Shown one piece after another: positions 5,170 through 58,503 of a DNA stretch of 64,000 nucleotides. The stretch's first letter is position 1, and each line of letters starts with the position of its first letter. Source of the DNA: Escherichia phage vB_EcoM_EP32a; the sequence record OR544954. One strand, given 5' to 3'. Made by a program: the position numbers and the translations under genes. The notes beneath the pieces were generated by a model, which was given only the letters and a program-made list of their open reading frames with translations, made no database searches and was not told the origin of the DNA.

Positions 5170-5904
5170 ATGGAGCTAATCTTTTTAAGCGGCATCAAAC
5201 GTAGTGGTAAAGACACCACTGCTGATTACATCAATTCAAACTTTAAATCCGTAAAATATCAATTGGCATATCCAATTAAAGACGCTCTAGCAATAGCCTG
5301 GGGACGTAGGCATGCTGAAAATCCTGATGTATTCACAGAGTTGAAATACGAATACTTTGAAGGCATTGGATACGACCGTGAAACACCATTAAATCTCAAT
5401 AAGTTGGATGTTATTGAATTATTGGAAGAAGCGCTAATTTATTTGCAAAGCCAATATTTACCAATTAATAATGTTAAAGTATTATCATCGTTAGAAGGTG
5501 GATATTCGTATCTAGATATTAAACCATATGAAGCCCTGCGTGAAGCTATAAATAATATCAACGACACATGGTCAATCCGCCGTCTTATGCAAGCCCTCGG
5601 TACGGATGTTGTCGTTAATTTATTTGACCGTATGTATTGGGTTAAACTTTTTGCATTAAACTATATGGATTATATTGGAAGTGATTTCGATTACTATGTC
5701 GTAACCGATACACGTCAAGTCCATGAAATGGAAACCGCTAGAGCGATGGGTGCTACAGTTATTCATGTGGTTCGCTCTGGTACGGAATCCACCGATAAAC
5801 ATATTACAGAAGCTGGGTTGCCTATTGAAGAAGGCGATTTAGTTATTACAAACGACGGCTCTTTAGAAGAGCTTTATTCTAAAATTGAAACAATCTTAAG
5901 GTAA
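5170..5904 (+). CDS. 1: deoxynucleoside monophosphate kinase gp1
   Basis: P-loop FLSGIKRSGKDT; 244 aa (T4 gp1 is 241 aa); conserved synteny. Confidence 0.9.
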   Translation: MELIFLSGIKRSGKDTTADYINSNFKSVKYQLAYPIKDALAIAWGRRHAENPDVFTELKYEYFEGIGYDRETPLNLNKLDVIELLEEALIYLQSQYLPINNVKVLSSLEGGYSYLDIKPYEALREAINNINDTWSIRRLMQALGTDVVVNLFDRMYWVKLFALNYMDYIGSDFDYYVVTDTRQVHEMETARAMGATVIHVVRSGTESTDKHITEAGLPIEEGDLVITNDGSLEELYSKIETILR

Positions 5905-8621: not shown

Positions 8622-9017
8622 ATGAAAGGCAATGTTTATCTGGTAGTTCATGATTTAACGTTTTATTTTAACGAACGTGAAACAGTTATTTCCGACCGGT
8701 TGATTAATTCGTTATATCAACACGCTGATTACGTTTATTTCCAAAATGAATTTGGCCATTGGAAGTTCATTAAAAACCGTTCTGGGTTAACTAGTTTTGA
8801 ATACTTTGACCGTAAAGACCTTTTAAACGAAATCCCATTGCAACATCGGTTCCAGAAACGCGAATCATTATATTATTGCCGTCATATATCAAATGCTGAA
8901 TGTGTTGATGAAGTAATTAATCTATGGCGTAGACGTAGAGAAAACAAATTGATGATATGTCAAAATAAGAAGCCGGGTCGCTACCGGCAAGTCGTCGGAC
9001 TGATGTTCCCTGAGTAA
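8622..9017 (+). CDS. hypothetical protein
   Basis: ATG after GTGAGGAAAA; the listed 8574 start would overlap the tRNA. Confidence 0.55.
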   Translation: MKGNVYLVVHDLTFYFNERETVISDRLINSLYQHADYVYFQNEFGHWKFIKNRSGLTSFEYFDRKDLLNEIPLQHRFQKRESLYYCRHISNAECVDEVINLWRRRRENKLMICQNKKPGRYRQVVGLMFPE

Positions 9018-9029
9018 GGACTGGTCTTA

Positions 9030-9280
9030 ATAAATCTTTACGATTTGTTAATATCCCCTTACATCACAGCAGAAACGGCGCACCGAATTATCGATTCGAG
9101 GAAATATCTTTGCCGTAAGCCGAGTAGCGTTTTTGACGGAACGTTCGGATATGGTCGAGATATGGCCTTTTAAAAATATTGAGTAGCGTCAACTGCTTAA
9201 TAACCGGGTTCGAATCCCGGCGTTTCGTACAAACACTTTGCCTTAGTAGGTGGAACCCCGACAAGGTTGCCGCAAGGCTT
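9030..9280 (+). ncRNA. candidate small stable RNA(s) (tRNA-like; analogous to T4 RNA C/D region)
   Basis: About 250 nt with no ORF next to the tRNAs; T-arm-like CCGGG-TTCGAAT-CCCGG at 9204-9220; repeated GAGTAGCGT at 9122 and 9181; ends at a terminator. Confidence 0.3.
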
Positions 9281-9308
9281 AGCCCCTTCCGAAAGGTCGG
9301 GGCTTTTT
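9281..9308 (+). terminator. rho-independent terminator
   Basis: GCCCCttccgaaaggtcGGGGC hairpin followed by TTTTT. Confidence 0.6.
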
Positions 9309-9320
9309 GAGGAAAATGTT

Positions 9321-9623
9321 ATGAGTCTTTACACTGAACTGAATAAAAAATCTGAAGAATCTGCTGAAACTATTTTTAAAAACGTGCAAAAGCGTATTTT
9401 AGAAAAGATGTATAACGCTGCAGCTAAAGGTGAAAAATCTTGCCGGTTTCCGATTAGGTGTTCTTCCGATTTATGCGCAAATACTATTGAATGGTTGGAA
9501 AGTGAAGGTCTTACGGTAGAGAAAAACCCGGCGACTTCTATTGGCAGTGAATCATATATTAGTATTTCTTGGGATAAATCAACAAAATTAAAAATAATGA
9601 TGTACAAGCACCAAGGATGGTGA
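9321..9623 (+). CDS. hypothetical protein
   Basis: ATG after GAGGAAAA; 100 aa. Confidence 0.5.
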   Translation: MSLYTELNKKSEESAETIFKNVQKRILEKMYNAAAKGEKSCRFPIRCSSDLCANTIEWLESEGLTVEKNPATSIGSESYISISWDKSTKLKIMMYKHQGW

Positions 9624-50679: not shown

Positions 50680-51315
50680 ATGAAAACTACTCCTATTACT
50701 ATCGCTATTGACGCAATCATAAAACAAGCTTCTTCTTTGGCCGCTATGGCCAAAGTAATTAGTCAAAACCCTGCTCGTTATAATGCTATTCTAGAAACTC
50801 TTCGACGCCCTGGACTTAGTAATTATGAAAGCCGGGTAATTATTACAGGTGTTGGTAAGAATGCTAATATCGCAACTAAAGCTTCCGAGACTTTTGCTTC
50901 ACTAGGTATTCCTAGCATGTATTTGAACACCGGGCATTATTCTCATGGTGATGCAGGATTTATTGCGCCTAATGATGTGTTGATTCATATTAGTCGTTCT
51001 GGTAAAACTGAAGAAATGATAGGTGTTGCTAAACATCTTCGTATGATTCGTCCTCAGGTTAAACAGATTCTGTTACATTGTAACCCAGACATTCCACAAG
51101 AATACGAAGCTCTTTTTGATTATACGTTCTGTACCGGTATCGCGGTAGAAGTTGACGAGAACTCTTTGGCTCCGACTATGTCCACTACATTGTTGTTAGC
51201 GCTTATCGATACGTTTGCTATCAACCTTTCGTCTGAACGCGGATTTACCTCTAATGACTTCCTTAAGTTCCACCCTGGTGGTGCACTAGGTGCCATGTTA
51301 CGAGGCGAACAATGA
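50680..51315 (+). CDS. SIS-domain sugar phosphate isomerase, KdsD/GutQ-type arabinose-5-phosphate isomerase-like
   Basis: VIITGVGKNANIATKASETFASLGIP, HGDAGF, ISRSGKTEE, LAPTMSTT, RGFTSNDFLKFHPGGALG align with the KdsD SIS domain by eye; 211 aa, single SIS domain. Confidence 0.8.
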   Translation: MKTTPITIAIDAIIKQASSLAAMAKVISQNPARYNAILETLRRPGLSNYESRVIITGVGKNANIATKASETFASLGIPSMYLNTGHYSHGDAGFIAPNDVLIHISRSGKTEEMIGVAKHLRMIRPQVKQILLHCNPDIPQEYEALFDYTFCTGIAVEVDENSLAPTMSTTLLLALIDTFAINLSSERGFTSNDFLKFHPGGALGAMLRGEQ

Positions 51316-51443
51316 AAGCAATAACAATAGGACTTTTACTATTGATGCTTGTCATGACTATCTACTGGAGCTTAATGGCTCCAGTAATGATTCCAACACT
51401 TGTAATTGGATGGATTATGATTGGACTACAAGCAAAGTATGAA

Positions 51444-51468
51444 TGCTTTATCTAGAATAGTGTACAAT
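51444..51468 (+). promoter_or_regulatory. middle promoter (MotA box aaTGCTTTA, -10 TACAAT)
   Basis: MotA box 51444-51450, TACAAT at 51463-51468, 29 nt before the ATG at 51497. Confidence 0.45.
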
Positions 51469-51496
51469 ACTCCTACTTACCAATGAGGACTTCAAC

Positions 51497-53182
51497 ATGA
51501 AAAAAGCTGTTATTCTTGGTGCTGGACTGGCAACTCGTTTGTATCCAATAACGCATCATATTCCTAAGGTGCTTGTTAACTATAAACAAGACACTATTCT
51601 GAGCAATTTGTATACAATTTATTCTGACCTTGGCGCAGATGAAATTATTGTAGTAGTTCATTCAAAATTTGCTGAAACCGTTCGAGCTTATTGTGAGCAA
51701 GAAGGGTTCAATGTGACTATTCGTACAGTTGATGAAGCGTATGGTTCTGCTTATGCTCTTGCTAAATTATACAAAGATTTAGATGGCCATAACGTAATTG
51801 TTAACTGGTGTGATATTATTCCTGATTTTGGTTCATGGTCTTGGAATGTTAACGCAATCTATGTTAAGGGTGATGAATGTCGATATAATTTCGACGGTGA
51901 AAATATCACTAACGTAGGTTCAACGGGTGGTAATGTTGTAGGAATTTACCAGTTCAAAGACTGGGAATTCTATATGGGTTCTACTGATGAGGAAATTCAT
52001 GAATACTGCAAAGGACGTGATTTCGTAGAATTCCTTTACGGGAGTGCATTCAATAAATCAGAGCTTATGAATCTAATTGATTTAGGTGATATGCCTAAAC
52101 TTGAAAAAGCTCATGAAGTTCGTGAACTTAATCGTAGTTTTAATGCAGTTGAAATTGGTGAAGAAACTGTAACTAAATTCGCATTAACCGAACAGGGTCG
52201 AGCTCTTCAGAAAGATGAGATTTCATGGTATCTTAAAGTGAAATCAGATTCAGTTCCTCAGTTAGTTTCTGTTAATGAAAATAACTTTGAAATGGAACGC
52301 ATTAAAGGTAAGCCGGCATTTGAATATATTAAATCCAAATCAAGTCTTGCTCGTCCACAAATTGTTGATGCAATTTTAGATGCACTGAAATTCAGCACAG
52401 ACACTTATTTTGTAAGTCCTGAAACTGTTCGTCGTGATTTCACTAAAGAATTCTATACGAAAGTTATTGATCGTTGTGAAAGCATTCAGCCATTGATTGA
52501 TTCATTTGGTAAAATCACACATGTGAACTACACTAAGATTGGACGTCTGAAGCCAATGCTGAAACAAGCTTTAGAACACCTTATTCGTTATCATAACCGT
52601 TCTCAGGGACAGTACTCTGTTATTCACGGTGACCCGAACTTCAGTAATACTATGATTACTGATAATGGCGAAGTCAAGTTTATCGACCCTCGTGGATATT
52701 TTGGTGAAACCAAGATTTACGGGCCAAAATTGTATGACGAAGCTAAAGTGCTTTATGCTGTTTCAGGTTATGATGAATTCAATGCTAATCCAACCTGGGG
52801 ACAGTTTACTATTGATGAAACAACTTGTAATGTGACTATTAACATCAATCCATTAGTTTACAAATATGGAAAGATGAGTTCGTTTAACGAGTATCATCAT
52901 TTGGCAGTGGCAATTATCTGGATTGCATTAGGTGGTTATTTCAAGAATAATCCACTTAAAGCGGTAGCCGCATATTATAAAGGTATGGAACTTCTGACTA
53001 AGCAATTACGTAACATGGGCCGTGTACTTCAGGACGGCTCTATTAGTTATGACGTAGCAGAACCTGTAACGGCTACTCTGATTACAAAAAATCCTGGTAA
53101 ATGGGTACTAACTGATAAAGAAACTGGTGTTTCCTATCGTCCAATCGGTGGCGATATCACTCATCAATGGGAACGAATCTAA
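51497..53182 (+). CDS. bifunctional sugar-1-phosphate nucleotidyltransferase (N-terminal) / APH-ChoK-fold kinase (C-terminal)
   Basis: N-terminus AVILGAGLATRLYPITHHIPKVLV (G-x-G-x-x-R, LicC/MurU-like); C-terminus VIHGDPNFSNTMITDNGEVKFIDPRG (HGDxxxxN catalytic loop plus D of the APH/choline-kinase fold); 561 aa. Confidence 0.75.
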   Translation: MKKAVILGAGLATRLYPITHHIPKVLVNYKQDTILSNLYTIYSDLGADEIIVVVHSKFAETVRAYCEQEGFNVTIRTVDEAYGSAYALAKLYKDLDGHNVIVNWCDIIPDFGSWSWNVNAIYVKGDECRYNFDGENITNVGSTGGNVVGIYQFKDWEFYMGSTDEEIHEYCKGRDFVEFLYGSAFNKSELMNLIDLGDMPKLEKAHEVRELNRSFNAVEIGEETVTKFALTEQGRALQKDEISWYLKVKSDSVPQLVSVNENNFEMERIKGKPAFEYIKSKSSLARPQIVDAILDALKFSTDTYFVSPETVRRDFTKEFYTKVIDRCESIQPLIDSFGKITHVNYTKIGRLKPMLKQALEHLIRYHNRSQGQYSVIHGDPNFSNTMITDNGEVKFIDPRGYFGETKIYGPKLYDEAKVLYAVSGYDEFNANPTWGQFTIDETTCNVTININPLVYKYGKMSSFNEYHHLAVAIIWIALGGYFKNNPLKAVAAYYKGMELLTKQLRNMGRVLQDGSISYDVAEPVTATLITKNPGKWVLTDKETGVSYRPIGGDITHQWERI

Positions 53183-53568
53183 TGCACCGTGTAGAAAACA
53201 TGCTTAATCTTTGTTTTGATGTCGACGATTGTATAACAGAGTGGAATAACAATCGTGATTACGTGAACTTCAAGCCAGACGTCGAAATGGTGACTGCCAT
53301 TAATGCCCTGTATGATGCAGGGCATACCATAACGCTTTACACTGCTCGTGGTATGAAGTCAGTAGGTCCTGGACGTATAGCAATTGATATTCTCCCAAGT
53401 CTGATTCAGAACTTGGCAAACATTGGCTTGAAGTACCATAATTTGCTAACACATAAACCAGTATATGATTGGATTATCGACGACAAAGCTATGCGTCCTG
53501 ACGAATTCAAAGCTCTTATGAATAAAGGCGAATTCGAAACATTTAAATCGTATAAACCGAATCTATAA
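53182..53568 (+). CDS. HAD-superfamily phosphatase-like protein
   Basis: Motif I-like FDVDDCIT, motif II ITLYTARG, motif III/IV HKPVYDWIIDDKA; start taken at the ATG overlapping the upstream stop. Confidence 0.55.
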   Translation: MHRVENMLNLCFDVDDCITEWNNNRDYVNFKPDVEMVTAINALYDAGHTITLYTARGMKSVGPGRIAIDILPSLIQNLANIGLKYHNLLTHKPVYDWIIDDKAMRPDEFKALMNKGEFETFKSYKPNL

Positions 53569-53628
53569 TAATTTAAGTAAGACCTGCAAAAAAAAACCAT
53601 CGCGTCAATTAACGTGAGATGCAAAAAA

Positions 53629-54789
53629 ATGAATACTTTTAAAATCGGAACGAATTTTGATTTAGCTCTTCTTGATAAAATCGTAGAGCTCAATAAAACT
53701 TATCCTAATAGCTTGATAAACGAAGTATACGGCTCTACAAGAGAAATGGCTTTTGTAGCAGCCAGACCTGATTTTAGGCTTCCTGACGTTGACAAAAAGA
53801 TGTTAGAAGATTACGTTAAACGTTGTAACGAATTAGGTATTTGCTTTAACTATACACTCAACACGATAAATCCTGGTTCAAAAAGAGAACTAGTTGAGTG
53901 GAAGAAGAAAGCTATTCAGGATTATGTTCAGTATCTTTGGTCAATAGGCGTATGGCGTATTACTATCGCTAACCCTGTTGTTATGGAAATTGTTCGTGAA
54001 GTCAATAAAGACATTGAGATTGAAGTTTCAACAATTCTACATGTCGATGCTGTAACTCAAATAAAATACTTACATGACCAATACAATATCAAAAAGGTCT
54101 GCTGTGGAATTCATAAGAACCGTTCAGTTTCTTTCCTGAAGCGTGCAGCAGAGTTTTGCAATAAGAACAATATAATATTTGAAGTTCTTGTAAATGAGTT
54201 CTGTTCTAATGCTGGTAAAGGGTATACAACACATTGTAGCTATCGTGACTCTTGCTATATTTTCCATAGTACTGATGTTACAGCTGATGATGCTAAATCC
54301 TTAAACGGGTATCCTATGCAGCACTGTATTAAAGCTCGTGATACAGACCCATTTAACTGGTTGAGAACTCGTTTTGTTCGTCCTCAAGATTTGAAACTTT
54401 ATAATGATATTGGTATCACTCAATTCAAAGTTTCAGGACGTACAGGTAGCACAGACTACATTTTGAAAGTTCTTGAAGCATACGCTTCTGAAAAGTTTGA
54501 AGGTAATTTGTTAGAACTGTGGAAGCCTTTAGAGACTATTTTCACTCTTGAAAACGAAACTGAGTTTTCACATACAGTAAATATTGAAACCTCTTTGTTA
54601 GATGGCTTTTTAGAAAAAAGGTGGTTCAGACATCCAGATTTCGATTGTGCTAATGAAATCTGCGGGACGACGTGTACATATTGTGAAAGATATTATAAAC
54701 GTCAATTATCTAAAAACGGGTTAGCAGAAAACTCTATATCTATTATTGATATAACTAACTCTGATGACGCTTTGAGGTACCCGGAATGA
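53629..54789 (+). CDS. hypothetical Cys-cluster protein (possibly peptidase-U32-like)
   Basis: 386 aa; NEFCSNAGKGYTTHCSYRDSC resembles the U32 signature E-x-F-x2-G-[SA]-h-C-x4-G-x-C; C-terminal C-x4-C-x3-C-x2-C; assignment tentative. Confidence 0.45.
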   Translation: MNTFKIGTNFDLALLDKIVELNKTYPNSLINEVYGSTREMAFVAARPDFRLPDVDKKMLEDYVKRCNELGICFNYTLNTINPGSKRELVEWKKKAIQDYVQYLWSIGVWRITIANPVVMEIVREVNKDIEIEVSTILHVDAVTQIKYLHDQYNIKKVCCGIHKNRSVSFLKRAAEFCNKNNIIFEVLVNEFCSNAGKGYTTHCSYRDSCYIFHSTDVTADDAKSLNGYPMQHCIKARDTDPFNWLRTRFVRPQDLKLYNDIGITQFKVSGRTGSTDYILKVLEAYASEKFEGNLLELWKPLETIFTLENETEFSHTVNIETSLLDGFLEKRWFRHPDFDCANEICGTTCTYCERYYKRQLSKNGLAENSISIIDITNSDDALRYPE

Positions 54790-55025
54790 TTTCTAGAAAA
54801 ACTTTTAATCACCGACTTAATGAAGAGATTTTGACTACGAAACTGAACACTAACGAACAAATTCTTAAAAAGGCCCTGATGGGCCTGTTTGAAATTAAAG
54901 CGGCTAAAGTGATTAAAGAACCTGTTCAATTGGAATACTACGCTGATGCATTTCTTCATAGTGTTCTTGGAAGTATCGATGCTGAAGCTTTACGTTATAT
55001 CAACATTGTCAAGAAATTCAAATAA
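54786..55025 (+). CDS. hypothetical protein
   Basis: 79-aa ORF ATGA-coupled to the preceding gene; not membrane-like, so unlikely to be Imm. Confidence 0.4.
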   Translation: MISRKTFNHRLNEEILTTKLNTNEQILKKALMGLFEIKAAKVIKEPVQLEYYADAFLHSVLGSIDAEALRYINIVKKFK

Positions 55026-55066: not shown

Positions 55067-55783
55067 ATGGGAAAACATAACACAATGAAATATATCAAAG
55101 CCGCAGATTTTCAAACCGCATTTAAAGCAGTCAATCGTGAAATTTTAGAAAACCCGGAATTCGTAACTGATTCTCGTATTGGACGTTGTAATGAAATTGG
55201 GTCTATGACAGTAGTTGTTGACACTCCATCATCATTCAAAATGACAGACCCACGTATTAACCGCATCTCTTATGAATATGCCGAAGACTTCTGGAAGTTT
55301 ATGATTTCTGGTGGTACCAACGCAGAAGAAGCGTTTAAGGCATATCCTAATGTCGCTAAATTTATTTCTAAACCAAAATCAGATGTTTTGCCGGCGAACT
55401 TCAACACTTTCTATGGTCCTCGCATTGCGGCCCAGCTACCGGCTCTTCTAAAAGAACTTAAAGAGAAGCCTAACTCTCGAAGAGTTGTGTTCCAAATTCT
55501 AGAAAGTTCTGATCAGGCTTTGCTTGATTCGGACGAAACGCTTGAATATCCATGTACTGACTCAGTGACTTATTATATTCGTGATGGTAAGCTTTATACC
55601 CACTGTCATATGCGTTCCCAGAACTGTGCTGTTGTTATGCAGTTGGATTTTTATCTCCAAGGAAAATTACTTCATTATATCGCTAACGAATGTGGTGTAG
55701 AAGTTGGTGATTATACTCATACCATGGTAAGTGCCCATGTGTTTGAACGTGATTTTGATTATGTTAAAGGATTCCTTGACTAA
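55067..55783 (+). CDS. 42: dCMP hydroxymethylase gp42 (thymidylate-synthase fold)
   Basis: NSRRVVFQI, YPCTDSVTYYIRDGKLYTHCHMRSQN, VSAHVFERDF correspond to T4 gp42 motifs (DSRRG, CTNTVQYLIRD, SLHVYSRHF); 238 aa. Confidence 0.8.
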   Translation: MGKHNTMKYIKAADFQTAFKAVNREILENPEFVTDSRIGRCNEIGSMTVVVDTPSSFKMTDPRINRISYEYAEDFWKFMISGGTNAEEAFKAYPNVAKFISKPKSDVLPANFNTFYGPRIAAQLPALLKELKEKPNSRRVVFQILESSDQALLDSDETLEYPCTDSVTYYIRDGKLYTHCHMRSQNCAVVMQLDFYLQGKLLHYIANECGVEVGDYTHTMVSAHVFERDFDYVKGFLD

Positions 55784-56682
55784 TGGCTATTTTCCGCGTA
55801 CCTATCTTGAGTATGCGGTCTTATGAAACTGGACAGTATGCTATCCTTAAGGATGGCAACTTCCAACTTCATTTGCACCGTGCTAATCCAGGTGATGTGA
55901 TTACATATCCACGTAATGCATCTGATATTAAAGAATGCGAACGTCTTTTTCCGGAATTTAAGTTTGTTCCATTATGGTATAAAGATAACGCGTATAACAC
56001 TCGTAAATATTTCTGGTCTGAAAATGAATTTGTGGTTGATTCATTAATTGCTTATTATGATTGTGATTTTCTAATCACAGATATCACCGGATATGATGGC
56101 GCTTTTGACGTAGAATTCAATTTCAATATCACTGCAGACCCTAATAAACCACGTTTTTATATTGATGAATTCTTAAAAACCGACATGTTGTCTGTTAATC
56201 GTTCACTTCAAACTACTGTGTTGAATGAACGTCAAAAAGAAGTGCTGGTTAACGCAGGTGCAGATGGTAATAAGATTATCGTAACACAGAAAGTTATACG
56301 TCCTTCCGTCATGCAGCGTCTTGTAGGTGATTTGGCTCCTATTCATCTAGATGGTATTTTTCATCCATTTCGAATTAGTGACCCATGCTATCGTTTTGAA
56401 CAAGTGGTTGAATGCGCAATTCAATTAGGTCAACCGCTTTATATAACTGATCCAAATAATAGTTTCGACAGAAATAAGTATCCTGAAGAAGCGCTGATTC
56501 GAATTTTTAATCCAACTAAAACTGAGTACTATCAAATTCTTAAAGGACGTCCGAAGATTCAATATTTCGAAAATCCTGAAGAAGTATTCCATCCAGGTCT
56601 TGGTGAGTTCATCTACTTTAATGCTTTAATTTCTTCACCGTATAATATACCTAAATACGAAGATGTCGTAATCGAGGAATAA
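55783..56682 (+). CDS. hypothetical protein in the beta-glucosyltransferase slot (candidate hmC-DNA glycosyltransferase)
   Basis: 299-aa ORF ATGG-coupled to gene 42, between 42 and uvsX where T4 has beta-gt; no similarity to T4 beta-gt by eye; function from position only. Confidence 0.45.
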   Translation: MAIFRVPILSMRSYETGQYAILKDGNFQLHLHRANPGDVITYPRNASDIKECERLFPEFKFVPLWYKDNAYNTRKYFWSENEFVVDSLIAYYDCDFLITDITGYDGAFDVEFNFNITADPNKPRFYIDEFLKTDMLSVNRSLQTTVLNERQKEVLVNAGADGNKIIVTQKVIRPSVMQRLVGDLAPIHLDGIFHPFRISDPCYRFEQVVECAIQLGQPLYITDPNNSFDRNKYPEEALIRIFNPTKTEYYQILKGRPKIQYFENPEEVFHPGLGEFIYFNALISSPYNIPKYEDVVIEE

Positions 56683-56683
56683 A

Positions 56684-57232
56684 ATGGCTAAAATTATTTT
56701 AGTAGACGGGCCTGATAATGCTGGTAAAACAACTTTCATTAATGACATAATGGAAATTAGTGAAAGATATGTAAAGATTGATTTCCCTAAACGAACAGTT
56801 GATGGGCGTTTCGATGTTAAGTCTCGAAATGAAGTTGGCTGTTTCGAAACGATGTTGAATTATTTAGACCCTACTAAGATTTATCTATTAGACCGTGGAT
56901 ATATTAGTAACTGGGTTTATGGACGTATTCGACAAGATGCGGACTCGGTTCTTGACGTTTATGAACAGGATTATGTTCGTCTTTGCCAAAACCATGATGT
57001 GTTCACAATTATTTTAACCCGTAACGAAATGACTGAAAGTTTTGAAGACGACCTTATTACTTTGTCTTCATTCGGTTTTAATACAGTCATTTCACATTTT
57101 GAAGAGTTTGCAATTCATAACAAAATCCAAACGTATCAATTACTTAATCATGATGGTTCTAACAAAGTTATAGGATTTAATGCAAGTGAACGTAATAATT
57201 TGATTACAGAAATCATTAAATGGGCTCGTTAA
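56684..57232 (+). CDS. P-loop kinase, thymidylate-kinase/dNK-like fold
   Basis: IILVDGPDNAGKTTFIND, LLDRGYISNWVYG (DR motif); 182 aa; separate from gene 1. Confidence 0.55.
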   Translation: MAKIILVDGPDNAGKTTFINDIMEISERYVKIDFPKRTVDGRFDVKSRNEVGCFETMLNYLDPTKIYLLDRGYISNWVYGRIRQDADSVLDVYEQDYVRLCQNHDVFTIILTRNEMTESFEDDLITLSSFGFNTVISHFEEFAIHNKIQTYQLLNHDGSNKVIGFNASERNNLITEIIKWAR

Positions 57233-57330: not shown

Positions 57331-58503
57331 ATGTCTGATTTAAAATCTCGTCTGATTAAAGCTTCTACTTCTAAAATGACTGCAGACTTGACTAAGTCTA
57401 AGCTGTTTAATAATCGTGATGAAGTCCCTACTCGTATTCCGATGTTGAATATTGCATTAGGTGGTGCTCTGAATGCAGGATTGCAATCAGGCTTGACTAT
57501 TTTTGCTGCTCCTTCTAAACACTTTAAAACGTTGTTTGGACTAACTATGGTTGCAGCATATATGAAGAAATATAAAGATGCAATTTGTTTGTTCTATGAT
57601 TCAGAATTTGGTGCTTCAGAATCTTATTTTCGTTCAATGGGTGTTGATTTAGACCGTGTAGTTCATACACCAATTCAGTCAGTAGAACAACTTAAAGTTG
57701 ATATGACTAATCAGCTTGACGCGATTGAACGCGGTGATAAAGTTATTATCTTTATCGATTCAATCGGTAATACTGCATCTAAGAAAGAAACTGAAGATGC
57801 ATTGAACGAGAAAGTTGTAGGTGATATGTCTCGTGCTAAGGCACTTAAATCTCTTTTCCGTATTGTGACCCCGTATCTGACTATTAAAGATATTCCGTGT
57901 GTTGCAATTAACCATACCGCAATGGAAATTGGCGGATTGTATCCTAAAGAGATTATGGGCGGTGGTACAGGTATTCTTTATTCTGCTAACACTGTATTCT
58001 TTATCTCTAAACGTCAGGTTAAAGAAGGTACAGAATTGACCGGTTATGACTTCACGTTGAAAGCAGAAAAATCTCGTACAGTTAAAGAGAAATCTACTTT
58101 CCCGATCACGGTTAATTTCGATGGTGGTATCGACCCATTCAGTGGCTTGCTAGAAATGGCAACTGAAATCGGTTTTGTGGTTAAGCCTAAAGCCGGGTGG
58201 TATGCTCGTGAATTCCTTGACGAAGAAACAGGTGAAATGATTCGTGAAGAGAAATCGTGGCGTGCTAAAGCTACTGATTGTGTAGAATTCTGGGGACCGT
58301 TGTTTAAACACAAGCCTTTCCGTGACGCAATTGAAACTAAATATAAACTAGGTGCTATCTCTTCTATTAAAGAAGTTGATGACGCTGTTAACGACCTTAT
58401 TAATTGCAAAGCAACAACTAAAGTTCCGGTTAAAACTTCTGATGCTCCGTCTGCAGCAGATATAGAAAACGACCTTGACGAAATGGAAGATTTCGATGAA
58501 TAA
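57331..58503 (+). CDS. uvsX: recombinase UvsX (RecA-like)
   Basis: MSDLKSRLIKASTSKMTADLTKSKLFN...; Walker A AAPSKHFKT; 390 aa (T4 391 aa). Confidence 0.95.
   Translation: MSDLKSRLIKASTSKMTADLTKSKLFNNRDEVPTRIPMLNIALGGALNAGLQSGLTIFAAPSKHFKTLFGLTMVAAYMKKYKDAICLFYDSEFGASESYFRSMGVDLDRVVHTPIQSVEQLKVDMTNQLDAIERGDKVIIFIDSIGNTASKKETEDALNEKVVGDMSRAKALKSLFRIVTPYLTIKDIPCVAINHTAMEIGGLYPKEIMGGGTGILYSANTVFFISKRQVKEGTELTGYDFTLKAEKSRTVKEKSTFPITVNFDGGIDPFSGLLEMATEIGFVVKPKAGWYAREFLDEETGEMIREEKSWRAKATDCVEFWGPLFKHKPFRDAIETKYKLGAISSIKEVDDAVNDLINCKATTKVPVKTSDAPSAADIENDLDEMEDFDE

Follow-up and report, generated by a model that had tools for sequence, protein, structure and literature searches.

The gene between a DNA glycosyltransferase gene and uvsX in a 64,000-nucleotide stretch of the genome of Escherichia phage vB_EcoM_EP32a (OR544954; hereafter the window) codes for a protein that does belong to the thymidylate-kinase superfamily but has diverged strongly. 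We see roughly even chances that it is a nucleoside monophosphate (NMP) kinase for C5-modified dCMP, converting chiefly 5-hydroxy-dCMP (5hodCMP) to 5hodCDP alongside the phage gp1 homolog. In favor of this reading would count the active-site motifs, the absence of the thymine-O4 arginine, the linkage to a particular type of ThyA homolog, and independence from sugar genes in Morganella phage MP1; relatives fused to a glycosylase domain count against a role with free 5hodCMP, and hint at a role at the level of DNA. The gene itself is a familiar one, the RB69p045-type 'nucleotide kinase' of the arabinosyl-5-hydroxycytosine (arabinosyl-5hoC) cluster, and the RB69p045 orthologs DLP3_078, JS98 orf40, and Bas47 bas47_0145 (phrog_761) are the same gene, with no difference of substance. 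Its product has been described as having 'homologs among thymidylate kinases' (PMC8056088) and appears in Table 1 of PMC13326640 as a 'Nucleotide kinase' whose structural hits are thymidylate kinases; we found no experiments on it in the accessible literature.

A kinase gene at the 3′ edge of the arabinosyl-5hoC cluster

A preliminary description of the window reported an extra P-loop protein beside uvsX, and we confirm both the open reading frame and its position, with uvsX directly downstream (Table 1). That the frame is a true gene and not a chance one follows from its match to phrog_761 (E = 1.7e-45), from the 343 phage records recovered by tblastn in a database of 50,697, and from the 315 relatives found with a family profile (below). 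The start codon lies 1 nt past the stop of the upstream glycosyltransferase gene (TAAAATG) and has a Shine-Dalgarno sequence, which makes translational coupling of the two genes probable. The protein has 98.4% amino acid identity to RB69ORF045c (NP_861735.1), and the surrounding 5.1 kb are 98-99% identical to about 150 genomes of Mosigvirus (RB69-like) phages. A hairpin (GGCTC-GTTAA-GAGCC) spans the kinase stop codon and is followed by an AT-rich 98-nt spacer up to uvsX; our promoter and terminator scan, in which the counts were no higher than the shuffled expectation, made no terminator call there.

The genes upstream of the kinase correspond gene for gene to the published RB69 cluster, which makes arabinosylated 5-hydroxycytosine (Lee et al., NAR 2026, PMC13326640). 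The kinase had been placed at the edge of a sugar module; the position holds, at the 3′ edge, and the module itself is a cluster for arabinosyl-5hoC DNA hypermodification. Within it, flavin-dependent 5hodCMP synthase activity has been demonstrated for RB69 gp48, DNA is the acceptor for the arabinosyltransferases, UDP-arabinofuranose is the proposed product of the sugar genes, and gp45 falls in the region to which 'pre-replicative synthesis of 5hodCTP' is ascribed (PMC13326640). Functions given for the other genes from 50680 to 55025 are likewise those proposed there. The ThyA homolog of the window carries L143E, D169N, and N177D (RSQN...LD), the signature by which Lee et al. recognize 5hodCMP synthases (PMC13326640), and the family of the U32 homolog includes RlhA, needed for 5-hydroxycytidine in 23S rRNA (ref 65, as cited in PMC13326640). 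The canonical gp1-type dNMP kinase noted elsewhere in the window is indeed a phrog_139 member; its RB69 ortholog, gp159, converts 5hodCMP to 5hodCDP in vitro, and E. coli DNA acquires 5hodC when only the ThyA homolog and gp159 are supplied (PMC13326640). With gp159 already making 5hodCDP, a second kinase is not, strictly speaking, a necessity.

Table 1. Coordinates of the kinase gene, its motifs and neighbors in the window, and of features at related loci (locus handle before the colon)
Feature	Coordinates	Strand	Remarks
gp1-type dNMP kinase (RB69 gp159 ortholog)	5170..5904	+	phrog_139, E 1.7e-59; outside cluster
SIS isomerase	50680-51315	+	Matches RB69 cluster
AfhE-like pyrophosphorylase/kinase	51497-53182	+	Matches RB69 cluster; function as proposed in PMC13326640
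HAD phosphatase	53167-53568	+	Matches RB69 cluster
U32-family protein	53614-54789	+	Matches RB69 cluster
79-aa ORF	54786-55025	+	Matches RB69 cluster
ThyA homolog, 5hodCMP synthase (RB69 gp48)	55067..55783	+	Pfam Thymidylat_synt, E 2e-15
GT-B glycosyltransferase GT1 (RB69 gp46:47, arabinosyltransferase 1)	55783..56682	+	phrog_3891; function per PMC13326640 Table 1
Shine-Dalgarno GAGGA of the kinase	56674-56678
Thymidylate-kinase-like P-loop kinase CDS	56684..57232	+	ATG start, TAA stop, 182 aa; ortholog of RB69ORF045c / RB69p045
P-loop / Walker A DGPDNAGKTT, residues 8-17	56705..56734	+	Aligns to thymidylate kinase P-loop
FPKR, residues 34-37	56783..56794	+	hhalign and HMMER alignment to yeast Tmk 'KFPERS'
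DRGYISNWVY, residues 70-79	56891..56920	+	Counterpart of thymidylate kinase DR(Y/H/F)xxS motif
DRGY, residues 70-73	56891-56902
R113 and F120-E-D122-D123-L-I	57020..57058	+	Short, putatively LID-like segment after strand 4
Hairpin across kinase stop codon	57223-57237
uvsX	57331-58503
Kinase-glycosylase fusion P0059	L022:10001-11074
Kinase-glycosylase fusion P0060	L032:1446-2390
Kinase-glycosylase fusion P0064	L033:127-1092
MP1 td-locus thymidylate synthase (NC_031020 BI036_gp154)	L027:42020-42859	-
Rgz1 'putative chorismate mutase'	L024:10023-10400
PSTCR6 tandem kinase paralogs	L043:8356-8916 and 9001-9600
RL38J1_214	L042:11792-12427	-

Fold and active site of the kinase family

Single-sequence searches of Pfam, NCBIfam, and the PDB gave P-loop noise only, and family profiles were required: PF02223 gave no match at E ≤ 1, and against TIGR00041 the kinase scored 16.9 bits (cutoff, 83.25) over residues 3-28, the P-loop only. 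A family profile search of 1.84 billion representative proteins returned 315 relatives at E ≤ 1e-3, with 45 at E ≤ 1e-10. A search for related loci with alignment A1 found mostly close relatives, and a homolog search with A2, the broad alignment of 42 diverse members that we used for profiles and residue counts, added only four proteins to those in A1. Since there are only 315 relatives, and every family context examined is a phage genome or a phage-like contig, the phrog_761-type kinases make up a small family, probably a viral one.

The profile search that had been suggested for placing the protein in a kinase family does so: the 42-member profile matches YorR, a prophage protein of Bacillus subtilis (E = 3.7e-9), as well as thymidylate kinases (E = 8e-9 to 2e-7), and its alignment with Staphylococcus aureus Tmk runs over residues 2-175. 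With yeast Tmk, hhalign gives a probability of 97.5%, and Foldseek aligns the AF2 model (pLDDT 87.4, with low confidence in residues 33-47 of the base-binding region) to thymidylate kinases at TM 0.5-0.6 (vaccinia 2v54, yeast 1tmk, and S. aureus 2ccj; 13-20% sequence identity). The five-stranded parallel sheet, P-loop, and LID of the thymidylate kinase fold are all present. From the agreement of the profile, hhalign, and Foldseek results we conclude that the kinase belongs to the thymidylate-kinase superfamily. It is nonetheless shorter, at 182 aa with a short LID versus about 200-215 aa, and unlike thymidylate kinases the family has an acidic or hydrophobic residue at the thymine-O4 arginine position and its own conserved D122, D123, and N133. 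The closest sequence relative in the PDB is YorR of the SPbeta prophage (2axp/3kb2), which has a non-canonical P-loop (GPDCCFKST) and, unlike the kinase, no link to a 5hodCMP synthase; we know of no function for YorR. A likeness to shikimate and gluconate kinases, raised in the preliminary description, amounts to the general fold, with neither fold nor HMM similarity above that to NMP kinases. The deoxynucleoside kinase hallmarks looked for, a PF01712 HMM match together with a catalytic Glu after strand 2, were not found, and by sequence or structure the protein does not join T4 gp1 in phrog_139.

Both motifs first noticed in the sequence, DGPDNAGKTT and DRGY, are where they were said to be, and together they provide a Walker A motif and a DR(Y/H/F) motif with a downstream Ser and aromatic residue; DRGYISNWVY aligns with DRYVYSGVAY in yeast Tmk, DRFVLSTIAYQ in Aquifex Tmk, and DRFVYSNLVY in YorR. 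G9, G14, K15, D70, and R71 are invariant in all 42 A2 sequences, and D11 (41/42), K36 (38/42), S75 (38/42), N76 (40/42), Y79 (40/42), R113 (38/42), D122 (41/42), and D123 (39/42) are nearly so, with N133 present in at least 90%. In the AF2 model, strand 105-111 precedes the R113/D122/D123 segment and helix 129-145 follows it; the segment would play a LID-like role, and FPKR is the likely counterpart of the phosphate-binding FP(E/D)R loop in thymidylate kinases of the eukaryotic type. In thymidylate kinases the DR arginine and the basic residues of the FP loop bind the acceptor phosphate; because these residues are conserved here, the acceptor is more likely a monophosphate than a hydroxyl group.

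Recognition of thymine is another matter. The FSANR segment of yeast Tmk contains a helix 3 arginine, which we take to hydrogen bond with thymine O4. Its position corresponds to E50 in the yeast Tmk alignment (E in 17 A2 sequences, D in 13, S in 6, H in 3, Q in 2, and K in 1) and to a gap or L58 in the Aquifex alignment (L in 27, F in 7, I in 5, and C, S, and M in 1 each). The two profile alignments give different registers in the base-binding helix, and in neither does any of the 42 sequences have Arg at this position, so that whichever is used, thymine-specific recognition is predicted to be lost throughout the family. An acidic residue at position 50 would suit the 4-amino group of cytosine, which, with the register uncertain, we take as a lead only.

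Linkage to 5hodCMP synthases and its exceptions

The kinase gene lies within the arabinosyl-5hoC cluster in 21/21 of the cluster-bearing Straboviridae loci examined, together with a D169N/N177D ThyA homolog, from phages of Escherichia, Enterobacter, Klebsiella, Serratia, Yersinia, Morganella, Providencia, and Acinetobacter. Gene order around the kinase in the window is that of Bas47, and the placement of the kinase between GT1 and uvsX is that of RB69; the kinase follows GT1 in RB69-like and Acinetobacter phages, and in JS98 and Klebsiella phages its neighbors are the phosphatase gene on one side and, on the other, the ThyA homolog or the U32 gene. Its retention despite these rearrangements points to a functional linkage. 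The U32 gene and the ThyA homolog of Morganella phage Rgz1 flank a gene labeled 'putative chorismate mutase'; a neighborhood of U32 and chorismate mutase genes hints at a possible oxygen-independent, prephenate-dependent hydroxylation route.

Five divergent metagenomic contigs (L022, L032, L035, L039, and L040) each have a kinase family member adjoining a ThyA homolog, and all five homologs carry L143E/D169N/N177D. The visible neighbors in L039 are genes for a MazG-like NTP pyrophosphatase, the ThyA homolog, and a dCMP deaminase, and with no glycosyltransferase or sugar gene found in the visible region, the setting of the kinase there is purely nucleotide-metabolic. A more distant relative (32% identity, on L020) lies 1.2 kb from a ThyA homolog with N177D but with D169 kept, which by these residues would be of the dCMP-specific type, without the D169N signature of a 5hodCMP synthase. 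In the phage database, the 343 kinase records compare with 342 that hold a ThyA homolog sharing 60% identity or more with the enzyme of phage Rgz1, which is of the 5hodCMP-synthase type, and the only exception that we found to co-occurrence of the kinase with a D169N/N177D ThyA homolog is Morganella phage MP1.

The MP1 locus reads gp43, two small ORFs, kinase, uvsX. A scan of its complete genome found the kinase and a gp1-type kinase, but none of the 5hodCMP synthase, GT1, AfhE-like, phosphatase, U32, or isomerase genes, whereas its genus-mate Rgz1 has the full cluster. The kinases of the two phages are only 60% identical, which suggests that their lineages have long been separate, without fixing the date of cluster loss. 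The MP1 kinase is 48% identical overall to the window protein and keeps 37/37 of the residues invariant in the close family; with the cluster absent, it is thus kept by selection without the sugar pathway, GT1, or 5hoC. This argues against a sugar- or glycosyltransferase-linked role for the kinase, and, MP1 having no 5hodCMP synthase, also implies that the substrate is not exclusively 5hodCMP.

At the td locus, the thymidylate synthase of MP1 has N177D (QRSADVPLGLNFD) as well as P145S and H147V, with L143 still Leu, and the orthologs compared from Rgz1, Pm5461, and Vibrio phage SSP002 (L029, L030, and L031) keep N177. N177D is the classical switch in specificity from dUMP to dCMP (refs 46 and 60, as cited in PMC13326640). 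From N177D combined with L143 we speculate that the MP1 enzyme may be a dCMP methylase making 5-methyl-dCMP, and that MP1 DNA may hold 5-methylcytosine; if so, the retained kinase could still serve a C5-modified dCMP. MP1 also still encodes a gp56-like dCTPase/'dUTPase' and DenB.

Four distant family members (P0059, P0060, P0064, and P0067; 314-357 aa) have an extra C-terminal, MBD4-like HhH-GPD domain, which in P0059 matches the MBD4 glycosylase domain in the PDB (E = 1e-9) with the HhH hairpin and catalytic Asp aligned; we found no report of such a fusion in the accessible literature. For two of the four (on L022 and L032) the genomic context is visible, and in each the fusion gene comes immediately behind that of a D169N/N177D ThyA homolog. 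An FMN reductase gene adjoins the fusion on L022, and one of the two loci has, besides an FMN reductase gene, those for an AfhE-like protein and an SIS isomerase.

Other relatives are aberrant in sequence. Providencia phage PSTCR6 has two tandem kinase paralogs, the first with a degenerate P-loop (GPDNSCKTT; G14C) and 5/37 of the invariant residues lost. Rhizobium phage RL38J1 has a 'nucleotide kinase', RL38J1_214, listed by Lee et al. (PMC13326640), beside a glycosyltransferase (RL38J1_215) that is a clear ortholog of the window GT1 (phrog_3891, E = 8e-88), and RL38J1_219 is its gp1-type kinase. We rejected this phage as an independent example of a ThyA-glycosyltransferase-kinase triad, since RL38J1_214 is marginally related to the family (hhalign probability, 73%) and has no D70, K36, or D122/D123.

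Proposed reaction and alternatives

In the pathway that we propose, the neighboring flavin-dependent ThyA homolog would convert dCMP to 5hodCMP, which the kinase would then phosphorylate. We predict that Mg-ATP is held by the P-loop (K15, T16, and D70) and the 5′-phosphate of the dNMP by R71 together with the FPK(R) loop, that D11, S75, N76, and Y79 contact its deoxyribose and base, and that transfer of the γ-phosphate would give 5hodCDP. Host Ndk would make 5hodCTP for the phage polymerase, and arabinose would be added later, on DNA. The kinase may act in parallel to the gp1-type dNMP kinase or as its high-flux partner; with T4 gp1 (1dek) it probably has the reaction class dNMP to dNDP in common, and possibly 5hodCMP as a substrate. 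The preliminary description had offered either a modified nucleotide or a sugar as the substrate; we favor the nucleotide, as a prediction, and the sugar is disfavored by the fold ranking and by the MP1 and L039 loci.

That thymidylate kinases are the best fold and profile matches, that databases label the gene thymidylate kinase, and that MP1 keeps it without the 5hoC pathway would all agree with an ordinary dTMP kinase, providing a host-independent supply of dTDP with the gp1 homolog perhaps shifted toward 5hodCMP. We consider this rather unlikely, however, as the protein falls short of the curated dTMP-kinase models, the thymine-O4 arginine is absent throughout the family, and a general dTMP kinase does not explain the near one-to-one occurrence with 5hodCMP-synthase-type ThyA homologs (343 versus 342 records), which the kinase adjoins in unrelated contigs too. 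Like a deoxynucleoside, ribosylnicotinamide, shikimate, or gluconate kinase, the protein might instead phosphorylate a nucleoside or sugar on a hydroxyl group, for salvage of 5-hydroxy-deoxycytidine or as a step toward UDP-arabinofuranose, but the fold ranking and the conserved basic FPK(R) loop speak against it, the sugar kinase step is already assigned, and MP1 and the visible part of L039 have no sugar genes, and we regard it as quite improbable. The protein might also be a degenerate, non-catalytic nucleotide-binding protein, acting as a scaffold of a dNTP-synthesizing complex or a sensor, or persisting as a remnant, and here one could point to the G14C paralog of PSTCR6, to the missing residues of RL38J1_214, and to the non-canonical P-loop of YorR. 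The Walker A motif, DR motif, and acceptor-site residues are intact in the window protein and in 42 relatives, though, and conservation of every invariant residue in the diverged MP1 kinase suggests purifying selection on a working active site, leaving a non-catalytic role very doubtful.

A role at the level of DNA deserves separate consideration, kept alive mainly by the kinase-glycosylase fusions. The kinase would phosphorylate 5hoC, or the sugar on it, within the polymer, or act as the ATP-dependent partner of a base-flipping enzyme, either the first arabinosyltransferase or a glycosylase, by analogy with the 5-HMUDK/aGPT-Pplase pairs of thymidine hypermodification; we think this improbable. 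Like the window kinase, 5-HMUDK (M6 gp54 and ViI gp67) is a P-loop kinase of ~185 aa encoded in a hypermodification cluster beside a ThyA homolog, and both families have relatives fused to a glycosylase-fold domain, fusion of 5-HMUDK with a glycosylase-fold transferase being known (PMC8989533). The fusions found here directly follow D169N/N177D ThyA homologs, and the kinase gene is usually adjacent to that of the DNA glycosyltransferase GT1. Against this, the similarity to M6 gp54 covers only 24 P-loop columns in hhalign and the two fall in different PHROGs (phrog_800 and phrog_761), on which grounds we rejected membership of the kinase in 5-HMUDK; the known products, as described in PMC13326640, are phosphate-free arabosyl ethers of 5hoC; glycosyl transfer from a UDP-sugar requires no kinase; and MP1 lacks GT1 and 5hoC but retains the kinase. 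5-Hydroxyuracil is the deamination product of 5hoC, and the fusion may reflect a shared pathway only, such as repair of 5-hydroxyuracil:G. Phosphorylation of 5hoC or of this deamination product in DNA, or an ATP-coupled quality control of 5hoC DNA, is likewise a long shot.

The arabinosyl-5hoC pathway was worked out only in 2025-2026, and the kinase is among its few conserved genes without experiments in the accessible literature. The annotation 'thymidylate kinase' is probably misleading, and the gene is better used as a marker of 5hoC-type cytosine replacement. If the kinase does act at the level of DNA, a class of DNA-base kinases would have evolved a second time, independently of 5-HMUDK. 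If it is instead a dedicated 5hodCMP kinase, the pre-replicative half of the pathway would be complete, the presence of two dNMP kinases per phage would be explained, and the enzyme would aid the rebuilding of 5hoC DNA synthesis elsewhere.
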